Positions 4,651-36,285 of a stretch of 64,000 nt of DNA are shown one piece after another. A model generated the notes under the pieces. The model saw nothing but the letters and a program-made list of their open reading frames with translations, was not told the DNA's origin and did no database searches. The stretch is taken from assembly GCA_964631415.1 (NCBI GenBank), contig CAZVZC010000001.1, forward strand, positions 68,638-132,637, given 5' to 3'. The DNA comes from an uncultured archaeon. Lineage in GTDB: Archaea; Asgardarchaeota; Thorarchaeia; Thorarchaeales; Thorarchaeaceae. The position numbers and the translations under genes are program-made. Each line of letters starts with the position of its first letter. The first letter of the stretch is position 1.

Positions 4651-5508
4651 TCAAGCAAGTGTCAGACTCATACTGAAGTCGGACGATGTATATGAGTGCG
4701 TTAGCGCACCTGATGATATCACGTCGGCTCCGCTCTTCGCAAACGTTCTTGCGTTGCTTTCATCGATTCCTCCGGACGCCTCCAGAATCACTCTCGTGCG
4801 TAGTCCTCTCTGAGTGAGGACACTGTGTACGTTCTCAATGTCCTTAGGAGTGAAATTGTCAAGAAGGACTATGTCCGCACCTGTTTCAACGGCTTGAATC
4901 GCCTCTTGTAGGTTCCTGACTTCGCAGGAAATCTTCTTCGTGAATGACACGCGTTCTCTTGCTGCACGTACCGCTTGGGCGACACCCCCTACAACCGCGA
5001 CATGGTTGTTCTTGATGATTACCATATCGTCGAGCGCGTAGCGGTGTGGGTCTCCGCCTCCCACTTCAACGGCACGCTTCTCGAAGTACCTGAAGCCCGG
5101 CGTGGTCTTTCGAGTTGCTGCCACAATGATCTTTGGATTCTCCTTCCTTGCAGACTGTACCATGTTGTACGTTGCTGTGGCAATGCCGCTCATACGCATG
5201 ACTATGTTGAGCACTACTCTCTCCACGGCCAACAAGGTCTTTGCAGGTCCTTTGAAACGAATCACAGGTTCCCTTGGTCCAACCCAGTTTCCCTCGAAGG
5301 CCAAGACTTCACAGGTGATTCCGTATAGGTCTGCGATTGCAGCAGCCTCTTCGACACCAGCAAGAATAGTCCTGCTCTTGGCGATGATTGTAGCGATGCC
5401 TGTCGCACTCAAAGGCCCCAATGCTTCAGTGGTTATGTCCCCGGACCTGATGTCCTCCTCCAAGAACGTCTTCAGCTTCTCAATGATGGCAGGAGGAAGT
5501 CCTTTCAT
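4651..5508 (-). CDS. nadC: nicotinate-nucleotide pyrophosphorylase (quinolinate phosphoribosyltransferase)
   Basis: TRKTTPG, HR, IKNNH, LLDN, EASGGI motifs. Confidence 0.95.
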   Translation of the reverse strand: MKGLPPAIIEKLKTFLEEDIRSGDITTEALGPLSATGIATIIAKSRTILAGVEEAAAIADLYGITCEVLAFEGNWVGPREPVIRFKGPAKTLLAVERVVLNIVMRMSGIATATYNMVQSARKENPKIIVAATRKTTPGFRYFEKRAVEVGGGDPHRYALDDMVIIKNNHVAVVGGVAQAVRAARERVSFTKKISCEVRNLQEAIQAVETGADIVLLDNFTPKDIENVHSVLTQRGLRTRVILEASGGIDESNARTFAKSGADVISSGALTHSYTSSDFSMSLTLA

Positions 5509-5524
5509 TCTTAGTCCTCCATTG

Positions 5525-6154
5525 TCATACTCTTGGGTGCTGCGGATTCCTCACCACATTGCCACGCGGCTTTTCTTCTCCGAAGATCTCAGCTTGGAAC
5601 GACATGAATTCAGTCTTGGGGTCCAACCACATGTTGGCGGGAAGACCTGCCTTGTTGCACGTCTGCTCTAGGAACTCCTTGACGCCCCATCCCCACTCCA
5701 CTGGCACTTGAGGTAGGAGCAGCCCTTTTCTTCCTCCTCTGCTCACTATGAGACCGTCACGGCCGATTTCAACAAGATCTAGGAGGCCTGTTGGGTCTGA
5801 GTACTTCATCTTCTGTGGAGGGGTCAGGATGCTCAGTTCGACCAGTATTGAGTTGAACTCTTTCACAGAAACCGGACTGAAGCGGAAGTCATTGGACGCA
5901 GCATCCACCGCCGAATCAATCGTGGCCTCGACAAGTGGTTGAGATGGGTACGGGCGGCCGATGCATCCTCTCAGCGTTACACTGTCGCCCCGAGTCGCAT
6001 TCAGAGTCACAAAGACACCCGATTCCTTCCTTAGGTGACTTGGGGTGTCAGCAGGCATATCAACCTTCTTTCGAAGCCGCACGTAGTCTTCAACAGCCTG
6101 TCTGGCGAGCTTGACAAGGAATACCCCGTCAGCGTCCGAGTACACGTGTGACAT
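5525..6154 (-). CDS. AMMECR1-domain protein (TIGR00296-like)
   Basis: GVFVT, LRGCIG, GLLLPQV, KAGL. Confidence 0.92.
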   Translation of the reverse strand: MSHVYSDADGVFLVKLARQAVEDYVRLRKKVDMPADTPSHLRKESGVFVTLNATRGDSVTLRGCIGRPYPSQPLVEATIDSAVDAASNDFRFSPVSVKEFNSILVELSILTPPQKMKYSDPTGLLDLVEIGRDGLIVSRGGRKGLLLPQVPVEWGWGVKEFLEQTCNKAGLPANMWLDPKTEFMSFQAEIFGEEKPRGNVVRNPQHPRV

Positions 6155-6212
6155 GTGGCATCAACTCGATGTGTCACTGGTAGCTTGGTATGCCGTTATC
6201 CTTTTCGCATTC

Positions 6213-7529
6213 TCATCTCGTAGCTTTGACGGGGACTCTTCCAGCCGTCCCTTGACCCACCATGAATTTCCCGTAGCTATACACGAGTTCGCCACCCACG
6301 AAGGTCATGACAGGGCGGGCCAGCACCCGTCGTCCTTCGAATGGGGTGATCTTGGCCTTTGACTGGAAGTCTGCACCGCGAATGACAGTATCCTCTCTCT
6401 GGACTACCGTAATGTCGGCGTCATAGTCCTTTGTGAGCACTCCCTTGTTACCGATTCGTAGTACCCATGCAGGAGCAGAGCAACAGCATCTCAAGTAGTC
6501 CACCCAAGACAACCGACCATCAAACACCTCTGTCAACATGAGTGGCACGAGTGTTTCCAGCCCTGGTATGCCTGAGGCAGCCTTCAGAAACGGTGCAAGC
6601 TTCTCCTGCTCGGTGTGGGGCGCATGGTCGGACACTACACAGTCAATCGAGCATTGACCACAGAGAGCATGTCTAAGCCACTCATTGTCCTGACGTGTAC
6701 GAAGTGGGGGGAGCACTTTCGCAGTGCCGTCTGAATCTATGAAGTCACTACCCGCCAAGAGCAGATGGTGGGGGGTCACCTCCGCTGTCAAGCTCTTCTC
6801 AGCCCTGTGCTCTCCTATCAGTCGGGCCGAGCTTTCACAGCTAACGTGACAGACATGCAGACGTCCTCCAATCTCAGAATGAGCACTTAGGAACTGCTTT
6901 ATTGACTTGACCTCACTATCGCAACTGTGAAGGGCGAGAAAGTCATTCAGGTCTTCGGATGCAGCACCAGGCTTGGAGGAGTCAGGATGGAATAGCAGTG
7001 GTAAATCCAGTTCGAAGCAGATTCTCATACAGTCGAGGGCTCGCTGGTGGCCAGTTCGCGTTCCCTGTACGAGTGGGGAATGAGGGTATTCCTTTACACC
7101 GAGTATGTTTGGGGTAATGGACGCATCGAAGTCCGCAGCCTTCTTTGGCACACCTGCATAGAAGCCGACATTGACAAAGCGTTTCTCTTGTGCGCTAGTG
7201 ATTTTCTCCTCAAGCACTCTCAATGTGAGGACTGGTGGATCAGAGTTTGGCATGTCGACGACAGTCGTTACGCCGCCTGCAGCGGCGGCCCTAGTCCCAG
7301 TCATATAGTCCTCCTTATTGGACTGCCCCAAGTCACGTAGATGCACGTGGATGTCGATTGCTCCGGGGAGGACGTATAGACCGCTGCAGTCGACTGTCTC
7401 ATGAGCGTCGGGCTCACTGCCGACCACATATAGCCCGTCGATTTTGCCTGCCTTGACGCCAAGCGAACGTGTCGTTTCCTTTCCGTCAACTATGACAGTC
7501 CCATTTTTCAGGAGAAGGTCTACAGACAT
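6213..7529 (-). CDS. pyrC: dihydroorotase-family amidohydrolase
   Basis: PGAIDIHVHLR, GGVTTVVDMPN, PPLR, SDHAPH. Confidence 0.85.
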   Translation of the reverse strand: MSVDLLLKNGTVIVDGKETTRSLGVKAGKIDGLYVVGSEPDAHETVDCSGLYVLPGAIDIHVHLRDLGQSNKEDYMTGTRAAAAGGVTTVVDMPNSDPPVLTLRVLEEKITSAQEKRFVNVGFYAGVPKKAADFDASITPNILGVKEYPHSPLVQGTRTGHQRALDCMRICFELDLPLLFHPDSSKPGAASEDLNDFLALHSCDSEVKSIKQFLSAHSEIGGRLHVCHVSCESSARLIGEHRAEKSLTAEVTPHHLLLAGSDFIDSDGTAKVLPPLRTRQDNEWLRHALCGQCSIDCVVSDHAPHTEQEKLAPFLKAASGIPGLETLVPLMLTEVFDGRLSWVDYLRCCCSAPAWVLRIGNKGVLTKDYDADITVVQREDTVIRGADFQSKAKITPFEGRRVLARPVMTFVGGELVYSYGKFMVGQGTAGRVPVKATR

Positions 7530-7571
7530 CTGCGGTGGACGCCACCCCTGTATTGTACGGAATGAACCACG

Positions 7572-8396
7572 TTAAGTCCGCTTCGGCGGCGCCGGGACTT
7601 TGAACTTGTTCGCCACAAACCGCGTGAAATCCGTCGCACCGACTATACCGACGAGCTTGTTGCCCTTAGTGACGACTGGCAGCGTGTTCAGGTAAGCCTC
7701 AAGCATCCTCGTGGCCGCTTTGCCAATTGGCTCCTCAGGGTCTGCCACGGGCGGCTGCTGCATCATAGCATCTACCACTCGAATCATTCTGACTTGGTTC
7801 GCACGGTATTTGTCTGGCACTTCCACACTGAATCTGGCCAGCGCCTGTGCCACTGTCTTCTCAGTGAGGAGACCAAGGACACGGTCCTTCTCTGTGACAG
7901 GCATCCCAGAATAGCCAGCTGTAAGCATGTCCGAGCGAGCTCTTATGAGTCGTTCCACTGGTCCGACAGTCAAAAGCCCCTCCTTTGTCATGAGCTCCTT
8001 GACCTTCACATTCTCAATCTTCTTGACAAGTGCAGAAATCTCAGCCTTTGTTATCACACCGACCAGCTTGCCCTCCTTGTCAATCACTGGACATCCACTC
8101 ATGCCCCTATCTACCATCAGTTGCGCCACATCTGTGATATCGTCTGTCGGCGATACAGTGATCACAGTTTCAGTCATTGCGCTTGACACATGGAGTCTTC
8201 CGATGGAAACAGCTACGACCTTGCTCACTCCGAGTCGATCGGCAATGTCTGCATAGGTGAGAATCCCCCTCAGTTCGTTGCCTTCAGTCACAATCAACCT
8301 GTCAACGCGTTTCTTCTCAAGGAGATCGAGGGCATTAGACAGTCTCTGGTCTTTTGCAATAGTCACTGGTTCAGTCATTATCTGAGATACTTCCAC
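7572..8396 (-). CDS. CBS-domain protein (four CBS repeats)
   Basis: Repeated IMT..V / PV / LVGIIT..D patterns. Confidence 0.9.
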   Translation of the reverse strand: MEVSQIMTEPVTIAKDQRLSNALDLLEKKRVDRLIVTEGNELRGILTYADIADRLGVSKVVAVSIGRLHVSSAMTETVITVSPTDDITDVAQLMVDRGMSGCPVIDKEGKLVGVITKAEISALVKKIENVKVKELMTKEGLLTVGPVERLIRARSDMLTAGYSGMPVTEKDRVLGLLTEKTVAQALARFSVEVPDKYRANQVRMIRVVDAMMQQPPVADPEEPIGKAATRMLEAYLNTLPVVTKGNKLVGIVGATDFTRFVANKFKVPAPPKRT

Positions 8397-25018: not shown

Positions 25019-25734
25019 CTAGCCCTCACATGCGGCTTGACCCCTTCTGAGGGCTTCTCCGTTTCTTCGGGCGGAGGCACTAGCTTGACCCATATCACGC
25101 TCTTCTTGTCCATCCAGAGGTCAATGAATGCTCTAGCATAGAGATGCAGCAATGAGAAGAAGATGCGAACTATCTCTCTTCGCGTGTTATTGACCAGTAG
25201 GTCAGTGAACCTGACGACTTCGCCCACTTTGACAATCTTCCAGATGTCCGCATACACCTCAGCGATGGTTTCCTCGATGTTCACCCGGGACGTATCCATG
25301 CTGAAAGATAGGGGTTCTGCCTCTGACCTTCTGTATCGCGACTGAGGAATTGGCCGCTCTCTTATGCCCTTGCTCAGGACTCGGTCCATTGCCATGAGTA
25401 GTTCCTGCAGGGTCACTCTTCTGTTTGTAAGTCTGAAAGGCGGTAGTATCTGGGGGATTGCAAGTTCCTCTTCCTCCTCGTCTACTTCGGGAGGAATCAG
25501 GCCGAGTTCCACGAGGTCTCTGGTCTTCTTCATGAAGATGACTGATGCAGAGTAGAGAGCATTTCCTGAAACTCGGAAGTCAATGTCCCCCATTCTTCTC
25601 ATTTCTTGCAGAAAGCTTGCAACGAGCTTCCCGACATCCACGTTCCAAGGTTCGATGTTGTCCAGCTGAAGGACATCGGTCAGGAGGATGTAGGGTGGCG
25701 AGGCCCAGAAAGGCGTATCATCACTCGTGCTCAC
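25015..25734 (-). CDS. scpA: kleisin ScpA
   Basis: IEPWNVD, DFRVSG, VTLQELL, FFSLLHL; lies between smc and scpB. Confidence 0.9.
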   Translation of the reverse strand: MSTSDDTPFWASPPYILLTDVLQLDNIEPWNVDVGKLVASFLQEMRRMGDIDFRVSGNALYSASVIFMKKTRDLVELGLIPPEVDEEEEELAIPQILPPFRLTNRRVTLQELLMAMDRVLSKGIRERPIPQSRYRRSEAEPLSFSMDTSRVNIEETIAEVYADIWKIVKVGEVVRFTDLLVNNTRREIVRIFFSLLHLYARAFIDLWMDKKSVIWVKLVPPPEETEKPSEGVKPHVRAR

Positions 25735-28700
25735 GCTGACTCAGCCACCTCCTGAAGGTCCACTGAAACTATTCTGGATATGCCATCTTGGTTTGACACA
25801 CCAATGAGCATGTCAGCTTTTCGTACTGTGGTATCCCTGAGCGACACAACTATGAACTGAGAGTTCTTGGACATCTCTGATATCAACAATGCAACGTTGT
25901 GCGCATTGACGTCGTCCAAGGCTGCATCTATCTCATCAAAGACATAGAAGCTTGCGGGGTTGTGCATCTGGATGGCGAAGATCAGTGCCAAGCCGGTGAG
26001 TGTCTTTTCCCCGCCGCTCATCGCATCAAGAGAAACCAGCTCTTTGCCTGCAGGCTTGGACCTGACAGTGATGCCTCCCATCAATGGATGTTCGGCGTTC
26101 TCTAGCATCAGGTTGGCCTCGCCGCCAGGTGATAGCTTGGTAAAAACCTTCGAGAAGTTGTCCGCTATGCTGTTGTATACCTGAAGGAACTTCTGAGTCT
26201 TCTCCTTCTCTAGCTCCTCCATGAAGGACAGTATCTCTTTGTGTTCCTTCTCAAGCTGTGTCTTCTTCTCGACAATTTCGTCGTATCTTCCCTTTTCAGT
26301 GTCATAGTCTGTGAGCGACTTCAAGTTGACTGGACCCATTGCCTCGAGTTCTCTCTCAATCTCTTTGATATTCTCTTCGAGGTCCTCAATTGCTTTGGCA
26401 GTCAGCTCACGTTGTCCTGCTCTCTTCTCAAGCTCTGTTTCCACGTCGGTCACTGCACCAAGCTGAGCAGTTAGTCCGACCAGATCGGTTTCCAGACGTG
26501 AGCGTTCTACTTGGAGCCTGTAGACCGCTTTCTCATTTCCGGTCTGCGACTCCTTGATCTCTTCCTGCTTCAGCCTAAGGTTTCTGATGGTTTCCTTCAG
26601 TTTCAGCTGCCGTACTCGCTTATCCTTGACTGCCGTGTCAATCTGTTCCCTCTCCGACTTCAGTTTGAGAAAATCGCTTTCTTTTGCCCTGAGGTCGGCC
26701 TCAATAGATGTAGCATCCTCTTCCAGACTCGGCAATACTGCCTCCAGTGACGCGATTCGGTGTTCCAGTTCTACTGACTTGGGCAAGTATCTCTCTTGAA
26801 TCGAAACTCTCAGTGCGGAGGTCTCGGTCCGAATCCTCTCGTGGTTTCGCTTGTGCTGTTCCAGGACCTCCTTCAGATCTCTCAGGTCCTGATTCAGCTT
26901 GGCCGTACCTGACTTTGCCAGTATTTCGTTGCACTGGTCTCTCTGTTCTCTGACTCTCTCTCTCTGAGCAGTGAGCTCCTCATCTCGAGTCCTGAGCTCA
27001 GATATCTGTCGCTCCAGTTCCTCAATCGTGACTCTTGCCTTGTCTATCTTCTCTTTCAGTTTCTGTGCTTTTTGCTCCCTGTCCCTGAGTTTCTCCTCCA
27101 AGCCCTTCAGTTCCAGCCCGTCCCTGTAATTCCGCTTAGAAATTTCTTCAATCTCACGGTCAAGTGCCTTTTTCCTGCCCAAGAACTCCTCCTGCTGTTC
27201 TTGCAGCTCAGACAGGATGTCCTCAAGGCCCTTGAGGCGTGAAATCACGTCTGGGCTCGTGTCCTCCTCTTGAAGTGAGAGACCCGTTGAATCTCTATGG
27301 AAGTGTCCTCCAGTGATCAGCCCCGAGCGTTCTACCAAGTCACCCTCCAACGAAACCGCTCTACAGTTGTCGAAACCCATGGCCTTTGCGGTATCGAAGT
27401 CCTTAGTCACAAGTGTGTCCGAGAATACGAATTCAAAGGCAGGACGCATCTTTGGGTCAAAGGTCACAAGGTCCAGTGCATAGCCTATCACACCCTCTTT
27501 CTGTGGCTTCCGACTCGGTCTTCGTGTCTTTATCCTGTTGAGTGGGATGAACGAGGCCCGTCCTACTCGCTCTTTCTTAAGCACATCAATACATCGAGTG
27601 GCCACATCCTCATTCTTTACGACTATGTGGGACAGCCTGTTACCCGCCGCCACTTGCATGGCTGTAGCATAGTCGGGGTCTATTACTCCCAGTTCTGCTA
27701 CTGTACCGTAGACCCCGTCAATCTCTCCCTTGTCACGTAGTTCAAGCACTCTGGCCAAGGCTCTCCGGCGTTTCAAGAACGCCTCTTCGGCCTCTCTCAA
27801 TGCATCCTGACGAGCCTGCAGCTTAATGAGTTCTTCCTTTGTCGAGGTAACGAGCTTGCTGCTCTCACTCACCTGCGCGTCCACTGTGGTAAGTTGCCTC
27901 TCAGTGTCCTCAAGTTCCTGCCGCCTTGCCACTTCGGACTCCTGTAGTCTTTGAAGGGCTGTAGTCTTTGCCGGAACGATGGAGCCGAGTTCTGACAGTT
28001 CCTCGTCTGTCTTCTTCAGGGAATCCTCAGCATCGCGTAACTCCTCATATGTGAGCCCCAGTTCCTTACTATCTGATTTGATGGTAGACCTGATTTCAGT
28101 CACACCCTCATCGAGGTGCGCCATCTGTGTGTTGAGGTCCTGAAGCCTTAGAGTGGCTTCATAGTATGCAGACTGCTCTCTTTCAAGAAGACCATCGAGT
28201 CGTGCGATGTCAGTTGAACATCCTAGGATCTCCTTGTCAAGACTCTCAAGACCGAGCTCCTTCTCCTTGATTGCATACTCCGCAGCGGTCATCTGGTCTT
28301 TCGTGGAACCTAGTTGCTTCTCAAGTGTGTCCCGTTCTTGTCTGGTTCTGTCATAATCACTCTTCGCACGATCCAGTTTGCTCCGGAAGTGTTCAACTTC
28401 TGCAGTCATGGTACCATACTGCTCAGAAACCCTTGAGGCGTTTCCACCGGTTATCAGGTCAATCTCCTGTTCTATCTCTTCAATCTCAGACTCGGTCTTG
28501 GCCATGTCTGCTTCGACCTTGGTCAGCTGCTTGGCAAACCTCTCAGCGTCTGCGGCTCGATCCGCAAGTGTTTCGTCTATCGTACTCGTCCGGTTCTTGG
28601 ACTTGATGACTGTCCAAGTCACGCTCTCGATCTTGGTCTGCTGTATCTGATCACGTAGACCCGTGTAGCGGAGGGCGTCCTTCCTTTCTGCTTCCAGCCG

Positions 28701-29321
28701 CTCCAGCTGGTGACGACGTTCTTGGAGCTGCGTTTCGACCTTGCCTAGGTTGGTTTCACTCTCTGCGAGCTTCTTGAGCGCCTTCTCTTTCTGCTCGTCA
28801 TAGGCTGATATGCCTGCAATCTCCTCAATGAGCTTCCGTCGTTCGATCGGGCTGACTTTGACCATCTGGGCAATCTCGCCTTGGAGTACAAGATTGTAGC
28901 CATTTGGGTCAACGCCTATGCCGCCGAGGATATCTATCACGGCCGCACGGGTGACCATCTTGCCGTTTATCCTGCAGACTGACTTACCAGACTCGTCCAG
29001 CTCTCTCTCAACAACGACTCTGTCGGCATCGATTTGCAGTTTTCTGTCCCTGTTGTTGAAGCAAAGCTCTACAACGGCCGACTTGGCCTTTGGAGGCATG
29101 TCTGGCTTGGGAGGACTATAGAGCAGCTCCGAGAAGACATTCGCACGCAATGTCTTGGCACTCAGCTGCCCAAGCACAAAGAGAATCGCATCAATGACAT
29201 TAGACTTGCCTGACCCGTTCGGCCCGACGATACAGGTGAAGCCAGGACTGAGGTTAATCGTGACGGTGTCCCGGCCAAATGACTTGAAGCCTTTGCATAC
29301 TAGCTTCTCGATGTGGACCAA
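25731..29321 (-). CDS. smc: chromosome segregation protein SMC
   Basis: GFKSF, GPNGSGKSN, coiled coils, hinge GRASFIPL, MSGGEK, FDEIDAALD. Confidence 0.97.
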   Translation of the reverse strand: MVHIEKLVCKGFKSFGRDTVTINLSPGFTCIVGPNGSGKSNVIDAILFVLGQLSAKTLRANVFSELLYSPPKPDMPPKAKSAVVELCFNNRDRKLQIDADRVVVERELDESGKSVCRINGKMVTRAAVIDILGGIGVDPNGYNLVLQGEIAQMVKVSPIERRKLIEEIAGISAYDEQKEKALKKLAESETNLGKVETQLQERRHQLERLEAERKDALRYTGLRDQIQQTKIESVTWTVIKSKNRTSTIDETLADRAADAERFAKQLTKVEADMAKTESEIEEIEQEIDLITGGNASRVSEQYGTMTAEVEHFRSKLDRAKSDYDRTRQERDTLEKQLGSTKDQMTAAEYAIKEKELGLESLDKEILGCSTDIARLDGLLEREQSAYYEATLRLQDLNTQMAHLDEGVTEIRSTIKSDSKELGLTYEELRDAEDSLKKTDEELSELGSIVPAKTTALQRLQESEVARRQELEDTERQLTTVDAQVSESSKLVTSTKEELIKLQARQDALREAEEAFLKRRRALARVLELRDKGEIDGVYGTVAELGVIDPDYATAMQVAAGNRLSHIVVKNEDVATRCIDVLKKERVGRASFIPLNRIKTRRPSRKPQKEGVIGYALDLVTFDPKMRPAFEFVFSDTLVTKDFDTAKAMGFDNCRAVSLEGDLVERSGLITGGHFHRDSTGLSLQEEDTSPDVISRLKGLEDILSELQEQQEEFLGRKKALDREIEEISKRNYRDGLELKGLEEKLRDREQKAQKLKEKIDKARVTIEELERQISELRTRDEELTAQRERVREQRDQCNEILAKSGTAKLNQDLRDLKEVLEQHKRNHERIRTETSALRVSIQERYLPKSVELEHRIASLEAVLPSLEEDATSIEADLRAKESDFLKLKSEREQIDTAVKDKRVRQLKLKETIRNLRLKQEEIKESQTGNEKAVYRLQVERSRLETDLVGLTAQLGAVTDVETELEKRAGQRELTAKAIEDLEENIKEIERELEAMGPVNLKSLTDYDTEKGRYDEIVEKKTQLEKEHKEILSFMEELEKEKTQKFLQVYNSIADNFSKVFTKLSPGGEANLMLENAEHPLMGGITVRSKPAGKELVSLDAMSGGEKTLTGLALIFAIQMHNPASFYVFDEIDAALDDVNAHNVALLISEMSKNSQFIVVSLRDTTVRKADMLIGVSNQDGISRIVSVDLQEVAESA

Positions 29322-29515: not shown

Positions 29516-29884
29516 CTATGACTTGACCATCAACATGAGCGCGCGCTTGAGCGCGATTCTGAGAAGGCCCATTGACTCTTTCGCGCCTTCTCCGGCGATT
29601 GCAGCAAGGACGAGTTGGACATCACCCAAGACTATGACATATCCCTTGTCCGACGCTATACTAATCTCCTTTAGAATGCCCTTGTCAACCGCCGTGACTA
29701 GTTGCGACGAGTTCGCAGATATCTTGGCGATTAATGCTGCAACGTCTGTGTGTTTGATTCCAGCCGTAACGGTGTGACCGAACAACACCTTGCCCTTATC
29801 ATCACAAACCACAATGCCCTGTATGTCAGCATTTGCCGCCATGGTCTGTGCCACGACTGACTCTATCTTGGCCTTGTCCACCAT
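29516..29884 (-). CDS. roadblock/LC7-fold protein
   Basis: Helix-IQGIVVCDDKG-helix-three strands-MGLLRIAL helix pattern. Confidence 0.75.
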   Translation of the reverse strand: MVDKAKIESVVAQTMAANADIQGIVVCDDKGKVLFGHTVTAGIKHTDVAALIAKISANSSQLVTAVDKGILKEISIASDKGYVIVLGDVQLVLAAIAGEGAKESMGLLRIALKRALMLMVKS

Positions 29885-30201
29885 CGTGACAGTCCTCCGA
29901 AGATTTTCACCCGCTGTCATCATGTAGAGGTCTCTGAGATGTTTATATCTTCTGTGCTGACATCTCGCTATGACAGAGTTATCCTCACACTCCACTTATG
30001 ACGATGCTACGACCGTTCAGTGTGAGTTGGATGAAGTCGGACACAGGAGTTTTTCCATCCAGAGCCGGCACTTCGGCTGTACATCCTACTTGCCTGTTAA
30101 GTCCGTGGTTCCTCAGTGTACAGAAGCGGAAACATCAGCAATTGACTTAAAGCACAATGGGCCGCATCTGATTAGTGATAGTCTTCTGAGGGATAGTATC
30201 G

Positions 30202-31827
30202 ATGCCCATGCTTAGAACCAGTTCAGAGGCCTTTCCAGCCTCGAAAGACATGATCAGTGAAATTCCATATGTCCTGCGTGTTGAGTTTAGAGACCTCGCA
30301 CGCGACGTAACAAGAATCACAGGAATGCCAATCGCATGCCACAAATGTAACGGCTTTCTGATGAGCGTCGACCAGATTGTTGAGGACAGGAAGATCGGGA
30401 AGCACTTTGTCTGCCCCTTCTGTGGCACCTTGAATGTGATTGCAGGTGAAGTGGTCTTTGCCGGCTCAGACACGGATTTCGTCATCAAGCCAGCTCCCGA
30501 CAAGACCGAAACCACTACAGTCGCGTCTGCTGGCGGTAGGTCATTCTTGGCCGTGATTGATGTATCCGGCTCAATGGCTGGGGCCAATCTGGCAGCAGTG
30601 AAGAGGAGTCTGACCACCTCTGTTGAGAGCCTAGTCGCGAACACTCCCGATACGCTCTTCGGGTTGATCGAGTTTGAGAGTTCTGTTCTGTTTCGCAATA
30701 TGGAAACGGGCGAAGCCGTGCAGCTTCCAAGAGAGTCCTTTGCGAGCTTCGAGGCTATCACTGAAGCCGCACGAAAACTCATGGACAGAATCAAGCTTGT
30801 CAAGGTGGGTGGAAATGCTGGCACTCTAAAGCGTCACATCAATGCCCTGAGAGAGCAGGGTGGGACCGCTCTTGGCCCTGCGGTAGCCATGGCGTGTATG
30901 ATTGCCAAGCACCGAGGTGTAGGCAGGGTGATTCTTCTTACTGACGGACTTGCGAACGAAGGCATTGGCGCTCTTGAGGGCTACCAAGTCACTCCTGGAA
31001 ACAAGTACTATGAAGACCTAGGACGTCTGTTCAAAGACAATGGCACAGCGATCGATGTAGTTGGAATCGCCACTGGTGCAGGAATGGAGCTGAGAACACT
31101 GGGCCTGATGCCAGAGGCCACCGGTGGCCAGATGTACTATGTCACGCCAAATGAACTCGACAAGAGCCTGTCAGAGCTAGCGGGAGCATCGCTGCTCGGT
31201 CGCGATGTTCAAGTCCGACTTCTTACTCCGGTAGGCGTGAAGGTCAAGGACGCTTCAGGAATATCAAGGGCCGTTGTGGAAGAACTCAGGACGAAGAGCG
31301 AGAGCAAGATAGGGGTCGTGGGTGAGAATCACGAGCTCTATTTTGAGGTGGAGCCCGAGAGCAAGCTCAAAGCCAAGGAAGTCCCCATCCAAGTGCAGGT
31401 GGAGTACACTGACCAAGATGGGTCCAGACGGATGCGTACTTTCACCAAGAAGCTGCGGGTCACTTCAGATGAGAAGGAGCTCGTGAAGACAATGGACCCG
31501 ACCATCGGCGCCACTTTCGTTGTTCAGAAGGCTGGAGAGGAGGCCCTAGGCGGCGGTCGTGCCGCCGGCATGACTCGGATTGCCAGTTTCAGGGCTGCAA
31601 TGAAGGAGAAGGCCAAGGCCGCACCGGCGCCAGTACAGGCGAAGCTGCAGAGGGCCGATGATGCGCTTGCCTCCGAAGAGGAGAACATGGAACGCCAGGA
31701 AGCAGCAGTGGGCGGTGCGCGACCGGGGGCACCATCAGCCGCAGCCGATCAAGCAGTCACCGAGAACTTGGCCCAAATGAGAAAAGCGTCCAAGGCGCTC
31801 TTTCACGACGAAGAGGATGAGAAGTAG
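30202..31827 (+). CDS. Sec23/Sec24-like protein: zinc finger, vWA trunk, beta-sandwich, helical tail
   Basis: ACHKCNGFL...FVCPFCGTLN; FLAVIDVSGSM; GTALGPAV; LLTDG; ATGG; IQVQVEYT..DG.R.MR. Confidence 0.8.
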   Translation: MPMLRTSSEAFPASKDMISEIPYVLRVEFRDLARDVTRITGMPIACHKCNGFLMSVDQIVEDRKIGKHFVCPFCGTLNVIAGEVVFAGSDTDFVIKPAPDKTETTTVASAGGRSFLAVIDVSGSMAGANLAAVKRSLTTSVESLVANTPDTLFGLIEFESSVLFRNMETGEAVQLPRESFASFEAITEAARKLMDRIKLVKVGGNAGTLKRHINALREQGGTALGPAVAMACMIAKHRGVGRVILLTDGLANEGIGALEGYQVTPGNKYYEDLGRLFKDNGTAIDVVGIATGAGMELRTLGLMPEATGGQMYYVTPNELDKSLSELAGASLLGRDVQVRLLTPVGVKVKDASGISRAVVEELRTKSESKIGVVGENHELYFEVEPESKLKAKEVPIQVQVEYTDQDGSRRMRTFTKKLRVTSDEKELVKTMDPTIGATFVVQKAGEEALGGGRAAGMTRIASFRAAMKEKAKAAPAPVQAKLQRADDALASEEENMERQEAAVGGARPGAPSAAADQAVTENLAQMRKASKALFHDEEDEK

Positions 31828-32015
31828 ATTCCGAATGAGTCCTCTCTTTCAGAGAACCGCGCACTTCATCGCGAGATGGGTTTGTCCGGATCCGTGAGGT
31901 GTGCGGCCCCTCTTGCCAGCCAGAACATTGGCGCGGTCCGTTATCAGAATGCGCAATTGGTCCGTTGAGAAGACCCTGTTGCCACAAGTCTCAAATACCC
32001 AAGCGTGGGGTAGGA

Positions 32016-32354
32016 ATGCTAAATGCACAATTGACAGCAGCGGGGATTCTACAGTTGGTTAGCCAAGACAAGCTCCGGTCGATTCTCTCTAAGATCAAGG
32101 CGCAAGGAGGAGTCCGAGGAGTTGTGGTCACAAATATGGAGGGCTTGCCACTTAGCAGCGATCTAGACCCCGAAACGACTGAAGCTGTCGCCGCCATCAT
32201 AACCTCCCTCGTGGGCAAGGCACTTGATGCAGTGAGAGAACTCCGAGAGGGGTCTCTGTCATTCCTGACCCTCGACACATCTAAGGGTCAGATTAACATA
32301 GCACCCGATGTGAAAGAGGGGTTAATACTAGTAGTCCTGAAGAAACCGAGCTGA
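32016..32354 (+). CDS. roadblock/LC7 protein (start 32016 or 32055)
   Basis: GVRGVVVTNMEGLPLSS...AAIITSL; lacks the last helix, as in short roadblocks. Confidence 0.88.
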   Translation: MLNAQLTAAGILQLVSQDKLRSILSKIKAQGGVRGVVVTNMEGLPLSSDLDPETTEAVAAIITSLVGKALDAVRELREGSLSFLTLDTSKGQINIAPDVKEGLILVVLKKPS

Positions 32355-32369
32355 AAGGAGAACGATGAC

Positions 32370-32837
32370 ATGAGCGATCCAAAGGTCTTCGACAAGATCC
32401 TCACTGAGATCATCCGCCAAGACAAGGGCATAAAGAAGGTAATCCTTGTAGACAAGACTGGGCTGACAATCGCAAATGTCAGCAAGCTCAGCTACTTCCC
32501 GATTGACACAGATTCGATAGGCGCGATTGCGAGCGCGGTGTTTTGCGCCAGCGAGGAACAGGGGAAGAACCTACAGATCGGAGAGCTTGAGATTGTTACC
32601 TCTGAGTTCTCAGAAGGTAAGATATTCGCCTCTGCATGCGGCAAGGGTGTCCTGTGTGTTGTTTCCGAGTCCGAGGTGAACATTGGCCTCATCCGGCTCA
32701 TCATGAAGAAGCAGGGTGTTCAGCTCGCAGAAGAGTTGGAGAAGTTCTTGGCAGTCGAACCCACAGCACCGTCAAAGGGCAAGGAGCTGGACGAAGAGGA
32801 TCTGAAGTCTGCTCTGGCAGAGCTCGAAAAGGTATGA
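32370..32837 (+). CDS. roadblock/LC7 (MglB-like) protein with acidic C-terminal helix
   Basis: VILVDKTGLTI...IGAIASA...NIGLIRL plus ELDEEDLKSALAELE. Confidence 0.88.
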   Translation: MSDPKVFDKILTEIIRQDKGIKKVILVDKTGLTIANVSKLSYFPIDTDSIGAIASAVFCASEEQGKNLQIGELEIVTSEFSEGKIFASACGKGVLCVVSESEVNIGLIRLIMKKQGVQLAEELEKFLAVEPTAPSKGKELDEEDLKSALAELEKV

Positions 32838-33084
32838 GCCCGCGCTGGTCGCCGGAACTGACCTGTCAACTCAGCTCTTGTCTACTTAACGGACAAAGGC
32901 TTTTATGAGAGTACAATGTTACCACAGCCAGTTACCCGATTTGGGATGCCCGGCTCGGGGACTGATACTTGGCTCTCAGAGCATGAGAATTGCCCGGTGG
33001 TACGTACTCTCACACTGGTGGTGTTTCTGCGCCACCATGGCAGGGACAGTCCACAAGAACAACATAGCACCGAGGTGTTGAAAC

Positions 33085-33648
33085 GTGCGCAAGGATGACA
33101 AGGGCAGGATTCATCTCAAGCTGGTTTTCTATGGCCCGAGCCTAGGCGGCAAGACGACTGCGCTACGTTGGCTGTACGGAAAGGTTGAGGGTCTCCAGAA
33201 GGGAGAGTTTACAGCAATCGAAGATGAAACAAACCGAACCCTGTTCTTTGACTACGTACCTATGAGCGCGGGAGGTCGTGTCCTCTTTGACGTGTTCACC
33301 GTCGCAGGACAGAAGCGACACAGGCATCAGAGGAAGGTTGTGCTCCAAGGGACTGACGGGATACTGTTCGTTGCGGACTCATCTCCCGACCAGCGAGAGG
33401 AGAATGTTGAGAGCTTCGAGGAATTGAAGCTGTTCTTAGGTGATGTATTGGGCCGTGATATTCCCATTGTAGTCATGCTGAACAAGCGTGACCTGCCCAA
33501 CAGGATGTCTCGTGATGAGATGCTTGATCTACTGGGACTCGGTGGCAACGTACCGATCTACGAAACCATCGCCGTTCAGGGCGTAGGAGTTAAGAGAGCC
33601 TTCCAGGCCATAGCACGGGAAGTCATCCTTAAGAGAATGTACAAGTGA
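33085..33648 (+). CDS. MglA-type small GTPase
   Basis: KLVFYGPSLGGKTT, RTLFFDY, TVAGQ, FVADS, NKRDL, TIA. Confidence 0.92.
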   Translation: MRKDDKGRIHLKLVFYGPSLGGKTTALRWLYGKVEGLQKGEFTAIEDETNRTLFFDYVPMSAGGRVLFDVFTVAGQKRHRHQRKVVLQGTDGILFVADSSPDQREENVESFEELKLFLGDVLGRDIPIVVMLNKRDLPNRMSRDEMLDLLGLGGNVPIYETIAVQGVGVKRAFQAIAREVILKRMYK

Positions 33649-33658
33649 ATGCACCTAG

Positions 33659-34039
33659 GTGAGTCTGATGAGCGAGTCGCGGGGCGATACACTCGAGGGA
33701 GTCCTGAACGAGCTGCAAGGCAGTATTCCTGAGATTGAGGCCTGTGCCATAGTGAGTGTTGAGGGGCTTCCGATAGTTTCAGCCCTGCCAACCGACGTTG
33801 ATGAGGCGAAGCTCGCAGCGATAACAGCAGCGATGTTGACACTGGGTGAAAAAGCAGCGGTCGAACTGGGAAAGGGCAATCTTGAACAGGTCAATGTGAA
33901 GGGTGTCAATGGTTGGATACTTGTGATTCAGGCGGGGATGAACGCATGCCTCACAGTGTCAACCACAGCCAATGCGAAGCTTGGTCTTGTATTCCTTGAC
34001 ATGAAACGAGCTGCAGAGAAGGTAGCCCAACTCATCTGA
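33659..34039 (+). CDS. roadblock/LC7 (MglB-like) protein
   Basis: IEACAIVSVEGLPIVSAL...LAAITAAML...AKLGLVFLDMKRAA. Confidence 0.92.
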   Translation: MSLMSESRGDTLEGVLNELQGSIPEIEACAIVSVEGLPIVSALPTDVDEAKLAAITAAMLTLGEKAAVELGKGNLEQVNVKGVNGWILVIQAGMNACLTVSTTANAKLGLVFLDMKRAAEKVAQLI

Positions 34040-34128: not shown

Positions 34129-34896
34129 TTGAACTTCGCCGGGCCGGTGTACAGGCTCTATGAATACTGGCTGTACAAGCAGCTGAGTAAAGAGAAGGCG
34201 CCTCGACATGTAGGCATAATACTCGACGGTAATCGTCGCTATGCTCGTGAGCATGGTTTCGACGTGCCATGGATGGGGCATCACAAGGGCGCACAGAAAG
34301 TCATGGAGGTCCTGCGGATTCTCTGGGAGGCCGGTGTTAAGGTGTGCACGCTCTATGCCTTCTCAGTTGAAAACTTCCAGAGGAGCAATGAAGAGGTCAA
34401 AGAGATAATGACAATCGCCCGGAAGAAGTTCGCTGATGTCATTGGCAACCCAGATGTTCACAAGCACAAGGTCCGTATCAAGGCCATTGGTCGGGTTGAC
34501 CTCTTGCCCCCAGAGGTAGCGGAGGCAATCCACAAGGCCGAGGCCGAAACTGAGAAGTACACTGATCATATCCTGAATGTCGCCATTGGATACTCGGGGA
34601 GAGCTGAGCTGGTAGATGCAGTCAGGGCCATCGGCCAGATGATCAAGGCCGGAGAGATATCTCCCTCTGATGTGGACGAGCAAGTGATTGAGAGTCACCT
34701 GTACACTAATGGAGTCCCGGACCCGGACCTCATAATCCGAACATCCGGCGAAGAAAGGCTCTCGGGCTTCCTTCTTTGGCAGTCTGCTTATTCAGAGCTG
34801 TACTTTGCACAGGTATACTGGCCTGCAGTGAGGCGCATTGACATCTGGCGGGCCTTGCGGTCATACGAACTACGTTCTCGCAGATTCGGCAAGTGA
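34129..34896 (+). CDS. uppS: cis-prenyltransferase (polyprenyl diphosphate synthase)
   Basis: HVGIILDGNRR, YAFSVENF.R, IRTSGEERLSGFLLWQ, RRFGK. Confidence 0.96.
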   Translation: MNFAGPVYRLYEYWLYKQLSKEKAPRHVGIILDGNRRYAREHGFDVPWMGHHKGAQKVMEVLRILWEAGVKVCTLYAFSVENFQRSNEEVKEIMTIARKKFADVIGNPDVHKHKVRIKAIGRVDLLPPEVAEAIHKAEAETEKYTDHILNVAIGYSGRAELVDAVRAIGQMIKAGEISPSDVDEQVIESHLYTNGVPDPDLIIRTSGEERLSGFLLWQSAYSELYFAQVYWPAVRRIDIWRALRSYELRSRRFGK

Positions 34897-35034: not shown

Positions 35035-36285
35035 ATGGCTTTGGTCAGGACTCCAATCGAAGTCTACAGAGGGCTGGTCCGGACGCATCTTGGTGACGAG
35101 TTGCCAACACACCTTAGGGCTGTCACTGATCGATTCTCAGAGGGAACATTCGCTGGTCAGAGCACATCAGGCCACTTGACGAGACTCCTGACATTGTTCT
35201 GTCGGTTCATGGCATACCTTGACTCTAGAGAAGTCGCCAACTTATCCGATCTCACTCGCGCAGTAGACTTGCTTGATTACTTCGCATCGACCTCTAAGTG
35301 GTGGTCAATAACAAGAAAGGCGCCTGGGCTAGTGCTTAGGCCGCCATCACATGACCCGCATGAATTCATGGAATCTCTTGCCGCTGTCCAGCTTGGCAAC
35401 GAAACGCTTAGTCGTATCGCTGGCTCTACCGAGAAAATGTCACAGTACCTAGAAGAGCATGGCATAGCTGAGTCACGCACTAAATCCGATTTGTGTGAGA
35501 GTTTCGCCTCAGTCTGGGCGGTCATGAGCGCAATCGTTTCGAAGAGTCAGGGACGCACTGTAACCTCAGAGAACGACTTCGAAGTGGGATATGATGTGAT
35601 TCGGGTGCTGTTGTTCTACAGCTCAGTCGATGACTTCAAGGCGTTGACTGCCATCCGAACTGTGGGCACGAACCCCAAGATGCATCGAGCTGCGGGCGTG
35701 TCCTTGGCACCCGGTTTCGAACGAAAGCTGGACTCTTCGGCGATAGCTCGACTCGAACGGCTACACGGCGAGAGTCTGTCGAAGCTCGCAGGATTGACGT
35801 CGGGAGCCGGCCGTTCCATTCTCACAAACTCCCTCCGGTTTCTTGCTCAGCAGCTGGCAGTAGAGCGGGCTTTCATGAAAGTTGAGGAGCAAAGCTATGA
35901 ATCTACGATAGCAGCAGCATTAGTTGCGCTCAGGAATGTCGGCATTCCATCTGGGCTCTTTCAGGAGGAGTCTGCAGTAGTCAGCCTCTTCAAGAGCCTC
36001 AAACCCTCAGATGATATCGGGGAGCGAATCGGTTTCCTGATGAGACGTTTCGAAGGCCTGATTGCTGACTCCGCAGGCAGTCGTGAGTTTCTGCTGCAGC
36101 ATTCTCGGCTGGTACCTCAGCTGGTTTCATTGCTGCTACTTCTCGCTTCTGGGACTAAGCCGAAGCTTGAGGGCGGGCTCCAAGATCCCGACCTAAAGAG
36201 AGGCCTGATTCTGCTTGAGCAACTGCTCAACGACTTGGGCTCTGTGTCTTCTTTGTCTCCTCAATCAGAATTCTCGCATCGATGA
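35035..36285 (+). CDS. hypothetical all-helical protein, possibly with internal repeats
   Basis: 416-aa ORF with no catalytic motif recognised. Confidence 0.7.
   Translation: MALVRTPIEVYRGLVRTHLGDELPTHLRAVTDRFSEGTFAGQSTSGHLTRLLTLFCRFMAYLDSREVANLSDLTRAVDLLDYFASTSKWWSITRKAPGLVLRPPSHDPHEFMESLAAVQLGNETLSRIAGSTEKMSQYLEEHGIAESRTKSDLCESFASVWAVMSAIVSKSQGRTVTSENDFEVGYDVIRVLLFYSSVDDFKALTAIRTVGTNPKMHRAAGVSLAPGFERKLDSSAIARLERLHGESLSKLAGLTSGAGRSILTNSLRFLAQQLAVERAFMKVEEQSYESTIAAALVALRNVGIPSGLFQEESAVVSLFKSLKPSDDIGERIGFLMRRFEGLIADSAGSREFLLQHSRLVPQLVSLLLLLASGTKPKLEGGLQDPDLKRGLILLEQLLNDLGSVSSLSPQSEFSHR

Follow-up and report, generated by a model that had tools for sequence, protein, structure and literature searches.

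Does a gene for a Sec23/24-like protein that sits among four roadblock genes and a small GTPase gene belong to a common switch with its neighbours, or does it only share their address? The question is raised by positions 29516-34039 of a 64,000-nucleotide stretch of DNA (hereafter the window, meaning the whole stretch analysed) from contig CAZVZC010000001.1 of an uncultured Thorarchaeota archaeon of the family Thorarchaeaceae. A preliminary description of this DNA proposed that the six proteins encoded there form a single module, in which an MglA-type GTPase, switched by roadblock dimers, recruits the Sec23/24-like protein as a candidate proto-coat. We consider it probable that the locus is instead a composite, comprising an ancient MglA/four-roadblock module and a separate Sec23/24-like gene which was inserted later. 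All six open reading frames (ORFs) are confirmed in the interval, in the order and on the strands described earlier, with a divergent roadblock gene followed by five co-oriented genes (lengths in amino acids, aa):

29516-29884, minus strand: RB1, divergent roadblock, 122 aa from a conserved Met (Robl_LC7 21.2 bits; PDB 9jq8 2.9e-8)
30202-31827, plus strand: Sec23/24-like protein, 541 aa (Sec23_trunk 1.3e-9, Sec23_BS 7.5e-8, zf-Sec23_Sec24 0.0018)
32016-32354, plus strand: RB2, short RBLC7 or dynein-LC7-type roadblock, 112 aa (Robl_LC7 2.2e-15, 56.6 bits)
32370-32837, plus strand: RB3, MglB-like roadblock with C-terminal extension, 155 aa (Robl_LC7 6.8e-11, 42.2 bits; MAPKK1_Int 1.4e-7)
33085-33648, plus strand: MglA-type small GTPase, 187 aa, GTG start (PDB MglA 1e-38)
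33659-34039, plus strand: RB4, full-length roadblock, 126 aa (Robl_LC7 6.7e-17, 61.5 bits)

Alignment of orthologues moved two of the predicted starts, that of RB1 from a 159-aa ORF to the conserved Met at 29884, and that of RB2 from 31899 to 32016. We do not count the 39-aa stretch upstream of the revised RB2 start (31899-32015) as coding sequence, since it overlaps a conserved promoter-like box and the orthologues begin at the internal Met. RB3 starts 15 nucleotides (nt) past RB2, and RB4 starts 10 nt past the GTPase gene; 188 nt separate the stop of the Sec23/24-like gene from the start of RB2. Since four of the 12 Robl_LC7 matches in this 2.16 Mb genome fall within 4.5 kb, the clustering of roadblock genes is not due to chance. 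The same genome holds 17 Arf/Ras-type GTPase matches, and further roadblock genes lie a few kb from Arf/Ras-type GTPase genes on two other contigs (C27:6986-9813 and C14:38659-41055).

The distribution of these genes among Asgard archaea separates the Sec23/24-like gene from the rest. Across 201 evenly drawn Asgard genomes, 85 of them of high quality, an RB3 orthologue was found in 179 (84 of the 85 high-quality genomes) and the GTPase family in 175 (73 of 85); the Sec23/24-like gene was found in 72 (28 of 85). Eighteen genomes of the same family as the window keep the order SMC, RB1, Sec23/24-like, RB2, RB3, GTPase, RB4, cis-prenyltransferase and a 416-aa protein, with identities to the window proteins of 91-98% for the GTPase, 84-94% for RB3 and 54-77% for the Sec23/24-like protein. 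As the housekeeping flanks are equally well kept in this family, conserved order says little about function. More instructive are five genomes in which the divergent RB1 and the RB2-RB3-GTPase-RB4 series occur without the Sec23/24-like gene: one basal Thorarchaeota genome (G007), one of a sister family (G025), two of Hermodarchaeota, and Borrarchaeum. In all five RB1 and RB2 are directly divergent, mostly beside the SMC and prenyltransferase genes which flank the cluster in the window:

25731-29321, minus strand: SMC, conserved flank (SMC_N, SMC_hinge)
34129-34896, plus strand: cis-prenyltransferase (UPPS-type), conserved flank (Prenyltransf 6.5e-77)

A further survey of 20 loci from other Asgard families recovered the complete cluster or parts of it in at least eight more families, and RB4 follows the GTPase in most Asgard families. 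The RB1 orthologue lies beside SMC and diverges from RB2 in Thorarchaeota, Hermodarchaeota, Borrarchaeum and other families, with SMC directly adjoining RB1 in the Thorarchaeota, Hermodarchaeota and f19 loci; the cis-prenyltransferase follows RB4 in Thorarchaeota, Hermodarchaeota and families f4, f8, f13 and f15, and in f19 it is found two genes beyond that position. Because these flanks persist in distant families (loci L139-L161), the cluster lies within a stretch of housekeeping synteny that is very old. It is dispersed in the Loki-type family, in agreement with a report that GTPase and roadblock genes of a Loki isolate generally lie outside operons (PMC10933270); most other families differ. 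Conservation across Asgard archaea, by which the preliminary description proposed that its module be judged, therefore holds for the GTPase-roadblock part and fails for the Sec23/24 part.

Several local variations on this arrangement were observed. In the small-genome lineages f3 (L142, L159) and f21 (L147), RB2, RB3 and RB4 are contiguous and RB3 is not separated from RB4 by a GTPase gene, and the best GTPase match elsewhere in these genomes is weaker (1e-64 to 1e-69). In a genome of the same genus as the window (G003), a gene encoding an arrestin-fold protein lies between RB3 and the GTPase (L023:3815-4804; Arrestin_N 2.5e-20, Vps26 weak), while the same spot holds a methyltransferase in L027 and a NosD/beta-helix protein in L033; such genes were set aside as parts of the module, as they differ from genome to genome. 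A zinc-ribbon protein is encoded between the GTPase and RB4 in L033 and L034. Downstream, the 416-aa protein (35035-36285 in the window) has no Pfam match, and follows the prenyltransferase throughout the Thorarchaeota family at 41-59% identity.

How, then, did the Sec23/24-like gene come to lie in the cluster? It does so in one Thorarchaeota clade only, where the co-location is kept in approximately 35 sampled genomes of some 15 genera. In a tree of Sec23/24-like sequences (MAFFT and FastTree, with the Borrarchaeum sequence as the assumed outgroup root, and with the support value of the linked group not printed), Borrarchaeum and Hermodarchaeota are followed by the unlinked sequences of G025 and then G007, and finally by one group holding all linked Thorarchaeota sequences. 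As the unlinked G025 and G007 branch below the linked group, the branching order agrees with a single insertion in the gap between RB1 and RB2. Outside the Thorarchaeota clade the Sec23/24-like and RB3 genes are never linked wherever both occur in the 201-genome sample; in families f9, f12, f16, f19, f24 and f27 they lie on different contigs or, in a closed chromosome, 860 kb apart. The Hermodarchaeota and Borrarchaeum homologues (34-39% identity) have metabolic neighbours, and no roadblock or MglA-type gene within 10 kb. Around 15 further lineage contexts, drawn from five families (ten genomes) and from seven metagenomic representatives, likewise revealed no roadblock neighbour of the Sec23/24-like gene.

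The gene was also lost from the cluster. One linked-clade genome (G006) has only a C-terminal remnant of 40 aa left between RB1 and RB2, and another (G014) a 39-aa N-terminal remnant beside RB1, with the block from RB2 to the prenyltransferase rearranged 32 kb away. In both, RB2-RB3-GTPase-RB4 is intact at 76-96% identity, and no other copy of the Sec23/24-like gene was found in these 96-98% complete assemblies. The Sec23/24-like gene has thus been destroyed twice within the linked clade while the cluster was retained.

In other lineages, a search for conserved neighbours of the Sec23/24-like family gave unrelated housekeeping genes, save in two cases. In the Loki-family genome G055 (f9), the Sec23/24-like gene (L171:6992-8656) has a small GTPase gene (L171:6195-6866) 126 nt upstream on the same strand; the 223-aa product of this GTPase gene has Arf/Ras Pfam matches, is 28% identical to the MglA-type GTPase and carries the G3 motif GTPGL, without the catalytic Gln. 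This adjacency is absent in two other f9 genomes, and it is not clearly above chance because Asgard genomes hold many small GTPases (17 Arf/Ras-type matches in that of the window). The other case concerns three metagenomic contigs of an unplaced lineage (P0021), on which the Sec23/24-like gene (5001-6617) overlaps by 14 nt the next gene on the same strand (6604-8049), encoding a 481-aa WD40 beta-propeller. The pair could constitute an operon of a Sec23/24-like and a propeller gene, which merits attention given that the outer coat of COPII and Sec12 are themselves propellers. In addition, a hexapeptide-repeat protein with a weak match to dynactin subunit 5 adjoins the Sec23/24-like gene in two f19 genomes (L165:8614-9231, L166:6156-6671).

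Putative promoter elements recognised from conserved motifs also set the Sec23/24-like gene apart from its neighbours, and comprise the following:

30144-30155, plus strand: A/T-rich TATA-like box, approximately 50 nt before the Sec23/24-like start
31949-31956, plus strand: ATGCGCAA motif upstream of RB2, 58-82 nt before the start in 19 of 22 Thorarchaeota loci
31983-31997, plus strand: promoter-like box CACAAGTCTMAAATA before RB2, core TCTMAAATA 22-33 nt upstream in 19 of 21 loci
32893-32909, plus strand: BRE/TATA-like box (B recognition element and TATA) ACAAAGGCTTTTATGAG before the GTPase, 81-254 nt before the start in 14 of 21 Thorarchaeota loci

The core TCTMAAATA of CACAAGTCTMAAATA is unique in the window, where 0.03 occurrences are expected; ATGCGCAA within the window alone is not above chance. 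Both are equally present in G007, in which the Sec23/24-like gene lies elsewhere, and in G006, in which it is deleted, and RB2 would therefore have retained its ancestral promoter region. The ACAAAGGCTTTTATGAG box is likewise unique in the window, and stays with the GTPase where foreign genes follow RB3. Upstream of the Sec23/24-like gene, a degenerate A/T pattern (for example, TTTAATA or CTTAAWA) followed by GGAG occurs 37-58 nt before the start in 15 of 18 Thorarchaeota loci; this pattern is loose, was chosen by the analyst and was made without comparison to chance. With boxes of their own before RB2 and the GTPase, and a looser one before the Sec23/24-like gene, a single operon is unlikely, and the likely units on this evidence are RB1; Sec23/24-like; RB2-RB3; and GTPase-RB4, the last perhaps extending into the prenyltransferase. 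The leader from the TATA-like box to the GTG start of the GTPase (32910-33084) appears to measure some 150-190 nt, and 81-254 nt among relatives. A scan for sigma-70 promoters and intrinsic terminators was discarded, being inapplicable to archaea and returning counts near the shuffled expectation.

RNA data came from one wetland metatranscriptome containing 5% of the sampled words, with contigs of a related strain (90-95% identical) which consequently show presence only. These contigs bridge RB2-RB3 and RB4-UPPS, and one runs from 32939, 30 nt past ACAAAGGCTTTTATGAG, into the GTPase, which weakly favours the units named above; RB1, most of the Sec23/24-like gene and its junction with RB2 are uncovered in this metatranscriptome, a gap which carries no weight.

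What might the ancient part of the locus do? The GTPase had been assigned to the MglA type, and comparison bears this out, as by sequence it is clearly nearer to MglA than to any other Ras-superfamily branch. Although Pfam returns both Arf and Ras models, the best matches among solved structures are the Myxococcus and Thermus MglA proteins at 1e-38 (136 bits), against 1e-12 for the best Arf. The alignment to MglA spans the intrinsic Arg (in RTLFFD), the TVAGQ G3 motif (in place of DxxGQ) and NKRD, with R51, T72 and Q76 aligning to R53, T78 and Q82 of MglA. The conserved motifs in full are GPSLGGKT, RTLFFD with R51, T72-V-A-G-Q76 and NKRD; among 16 Asgard orthologues R51 is nearly invariant (90% or more), and T72 and Q76 are invariant. 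Identity ranges from 91-98% within the Thorarchaeota family to 48-65% across Asgard archaea. The protein is a single 187-aa G domain without a C-terminal roadblock domain and, as the preliminary description had it, without an N-terminal amphipathic helix, because only about 10 residues precede the first strand.

The roadblocks are of distinct types. RB2, RB3 and RB4 exceed the Robl_LC7 Pfam cut-off of 23 bits; RB1 falls just below it but matches PDB 9jq8, itself a solved roadblock protein. The best solved relatives of RB2 are PDB 7f8f (1.2e-23) and human dynein light chain roadblock (1e-13). The match table names 7f8f only as "Robl_LC7 domain-containing protein"; going by PMC10933270, it is probably the structure of Odin-RBLC7, a short roadblock without the C-terminal helix, and such short forms were grouped there with LAMTOR4/5. 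RB4 matches 7f8m (2.5e-24), which is probably the structure that this paper calls Thor-RB. RB3 is nearest to M. xanthus MglB (8e-7 over residues 13-149) and then LAMTOR2, and is 55-67% identical in most Asgard families. A search by PDB code for 9jue and 9jq8 found no paper.

Taken with their distribution, these features suggest that RB1, RB2, RB3, the MglA-type GTPase and RB4 constitute an ancient Asgard module of nearly universal occurrence. Bacterial MglA-MglB suggests, by analogy, that the catalytic Arg and Gln both come from the GTPase itself, and that a roadblock dimer including RB3 may close on the switch regions and accelerate GTP hydrolysis. The other roadblocks could pair, with themselves or with one another, into additional dimers which serve as scaffolds for the switch or determine its location. 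An AlphaFold 3 model of a Thorarchaeota MglA-MglB pair is described as MglA-MglB-like (PMC13408092). The likeness to the MglA-MglB(-MglC) system of Myxococcus xanthus and Thermus thermophilus extends to the GTPase hallmarks (the RTLFFD Arg, TxxGQ and NKxD) beside roadblock genes, and to RB3 being nearest to MglB, including the C-terminal extension. The systems differ in that four distinct roadblocks are present here, one of the short dynein-LC7 type, as opposed to one MglB (plus MglC), and in that the host is an archaeon without gliding motility, whose cluster lies beside SMC and cis-prenyltransferase genes.

The Sec23/24-like protein comprises a zinc finger, a vWA trunk with an intact MIDAS (metal-ion-dependent adhesion site), a beta-sandwich, a helical domain and an acidic tail, with no gelsolin domain. 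Its structure model (pLDDT 89.4, from a 38-sequence alignment) returns Sec23 or Sec24 as all 46 of the top 46 Foldseek matches, and the sequence profile places it nearer to Sec24 (2.4e-27) than to Sec23 (2.7e-12). Across the 38 sequences the zinc-finger residues C46, C49, C71 and C74, which align to the Sec24 finger, are invariant, as is the complete MIDAS (D120-x-S-G-S124, T222, D248). Residues 424-540 of the 541 are all helical, and this C-terminal domain ends in the conserved acidic tail. The arrangement of trunk, beta-sandwich and helical domain is thus that of Sec23/24; the whole model aligns inside residues 13-635 of Sec23A, leaving the C-terminal remainder with the gelsolin-like domain unmatched, so that a Sec23-type Arg finger would also be missing. 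The genome has one Sec23_trunk match and hence no second paralogue for a heterodimer, and full-length copies number one per genome in the Asgard sample, second matches being gene pieces. In comparison with eukaryotic Sec23/Sec24, the zinc finger, vWA-like trunk, beta-sandwich and helical domain are shared; the Thorarchaeota protein differs in lacking the gelsolin domain and Sec23 Arg finger, in being a single gene as opposed to a Sec23/Sec24 pair, in its intact and invariant MIDAS and acidic C-terminal tail, and in having a neighbouring GTPase of MglA type, not Sar1/Arf. It resembles the published Asgard Sec23-like proteins, which possess the building blocks of Sec23 without the gelsolin domain, have Sec23 as their closest structural match, and failed to bind an Asgard Arf in a nucleotide-dependent manner (PMC11914678). 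That study tried binding with one Asgard Arf, not with an MglA-type GTPase, and did not discuss gene neighbourhood; our literature search found no paper linking Sec23-like proteins to MglA in archaea, nor any reporting their placement inside a roadblock/MglA cluster in Thorarchaeota.

Against this background, the original proposal of a proto-coat switch, in which the Thorarchaeota MglA-type GTPase is set by roadblock dimers and in its GTP state recruits the Sec23/24-like protein as effector or membrane adaptor, the insertion having created a six-gene module, seems to us very unlikely. The protein does have the fold of Sec23/24, which in eukaryotes is a small-GTPase effector, its co-location has been kept throughout the linked clade, and G055 offers a second, independent adjacency to a small GTPase. 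However, the linkage reflects one evolutionary event amid flanks which are equally conserved; the gene is unlinked from the cluster in every other lineage examined, has been lost twice with the cluster intact, and has a distribution about three times narrower than that of the cluster. RB2 and the GTPase have separate promoter-like boxes, and the protein lacks the gelsolin domain, from which Sec23 derives its Arg finger and a portion of its interface with Sar1 (PMC11914678). When the Sec23/24-like protein was modelled in complex with the GTPase, GTP and Mg, two runs without controls scored 0.00, which weighs neither way. Departing further from coats, the protein may be a signalling scaffold akin to crenarchaeal ArnB/ArnE, a regulator built of a vWA domain with MIDAS, a beta-sandwich and a helical domain, in which C-terminal modification switches partners, and which is unrelated both to coats and to the neighbouring GTPase. 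Such a role would accord with the MIDAS, intact as in ArnB/ArnE (PMC12852372), the absence of a gelsolin domain and the helical C-terminal domain with its conserved acidic tail. In the Sulfolobus ArnA-ArnB complex (PDB 8s05; PMC12852372), which shares these domains and likewise has no gelsolin domain, a zinc finger also packs on the beta-sandwich, but it belongs to a separate FHA protein under Ser/Thr phosphorylation control; the Thorarchaeota protein carries its finger in cis, like Sec23/24, and neither the neighbours in the window nor those at the other loci examined include an FHA or kinase gene, such that we regard this explanation as unlikely.

A third alternative concerns the four different roadblocks, which might form two heterodimers that jointly dock the GTPase on a membrane, as a forerunner of LAMTOR2/3 and LAMTOR4/5, and not as a simple MglB-type GTPase-activating protein (GAP). 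Asgard archaea widely keep the four distinct roadblock types together; RB2 is short and nearest to 7f8f and dynein light chain roadblock, a form grouped with LAMTOR4/5 (PMC10933270), and RB3 weakly matches LAMTOR2 and MAPKK1_Int. Like the Ragulator-Rag system (LAMTOR1-5 with RagA/C), the cluster encodes several roadblocks, full-length and short, with a small GTPase. Unlike Rag, that GTPase is a single-domain MglA-type protein without a roadblock domain of its own; no LAMTOR1-like anchor was noted in the cluster, and f3 and f21 keep RB2-RB3-RB4 without a GTPase between them. A Ragulator-like platform is therefore a tentative possibility, about which we remain doubtful. As to the composite of an ancient switch and an inserted gene, which we favour, several points weigh against it. 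The insertion has remained in place through some 15 genera, which is compatible with selection for co-location, albeit that the SMC and UPPS flanks have been kept equally well; in G055 the Sec23/24-like gene has a small GTPase gene immediately upstream, which may signify a recurrent GTPase link; the promoters are putative, recognised from conserved motifs; and both the pairing of roadblocks and their GAP role are proposed by analogy.

On balance, that part of the six-protein module which unites the GTPase with the roadblocks is supported, being kept across Asgard archaea with an MglB-like RB3; the membership of the Sec23/24-like protein is not supported, given a one-clade insertion, the absence of linkage in about 15 other contexts, two losses and separate promoter-like boxes. 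Under the composite reading, the Sec23/24-like gene would have entered the divergent RB1/RB2 gap in an ancestor of one Thorarchaeota clade, where it would form a separate transcription unit, possibly with its own promoter box, and be dispensable for keeping the cluster. Functional coupling of the Sec23/24-like protein with the GTPase module in Thorarchaeota is possible but unsupported and, as the gene joined the cluster in one archaeal clade only, position alone is no proof of a primitive vesicle coat.

That the MglA/roadblock switch of the insertion-bearing Thorarchaeota clade has captured the gelsolin-less Sec23/24-like protein, for GTP-dependent use as its effector or membrane adaptor, strikes us as improbable. 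If true, such a capture would represent a natural case in which a coat adaptor of eukaryotic type is driven by a polarity GTPase of prokaryotic type, and a working link between the two proteins would bear directly on the origins of COPII-type coats, a claim which gene order alone cannot carry. Of value in its own right is the five-gene cluster of an MglA-type GTPase and four roadblocks in nearly all high-quality Asgard genomes sampled, with its close archaeal relatives of dynein-LC7 and MglB. So too is a minimal Sec23/24-like protein which has natural "knock-out" relatives (G006, G014) and unlinked relatives (G007, G025), and which thereby renders the coupling hypothesis cheaply testable.

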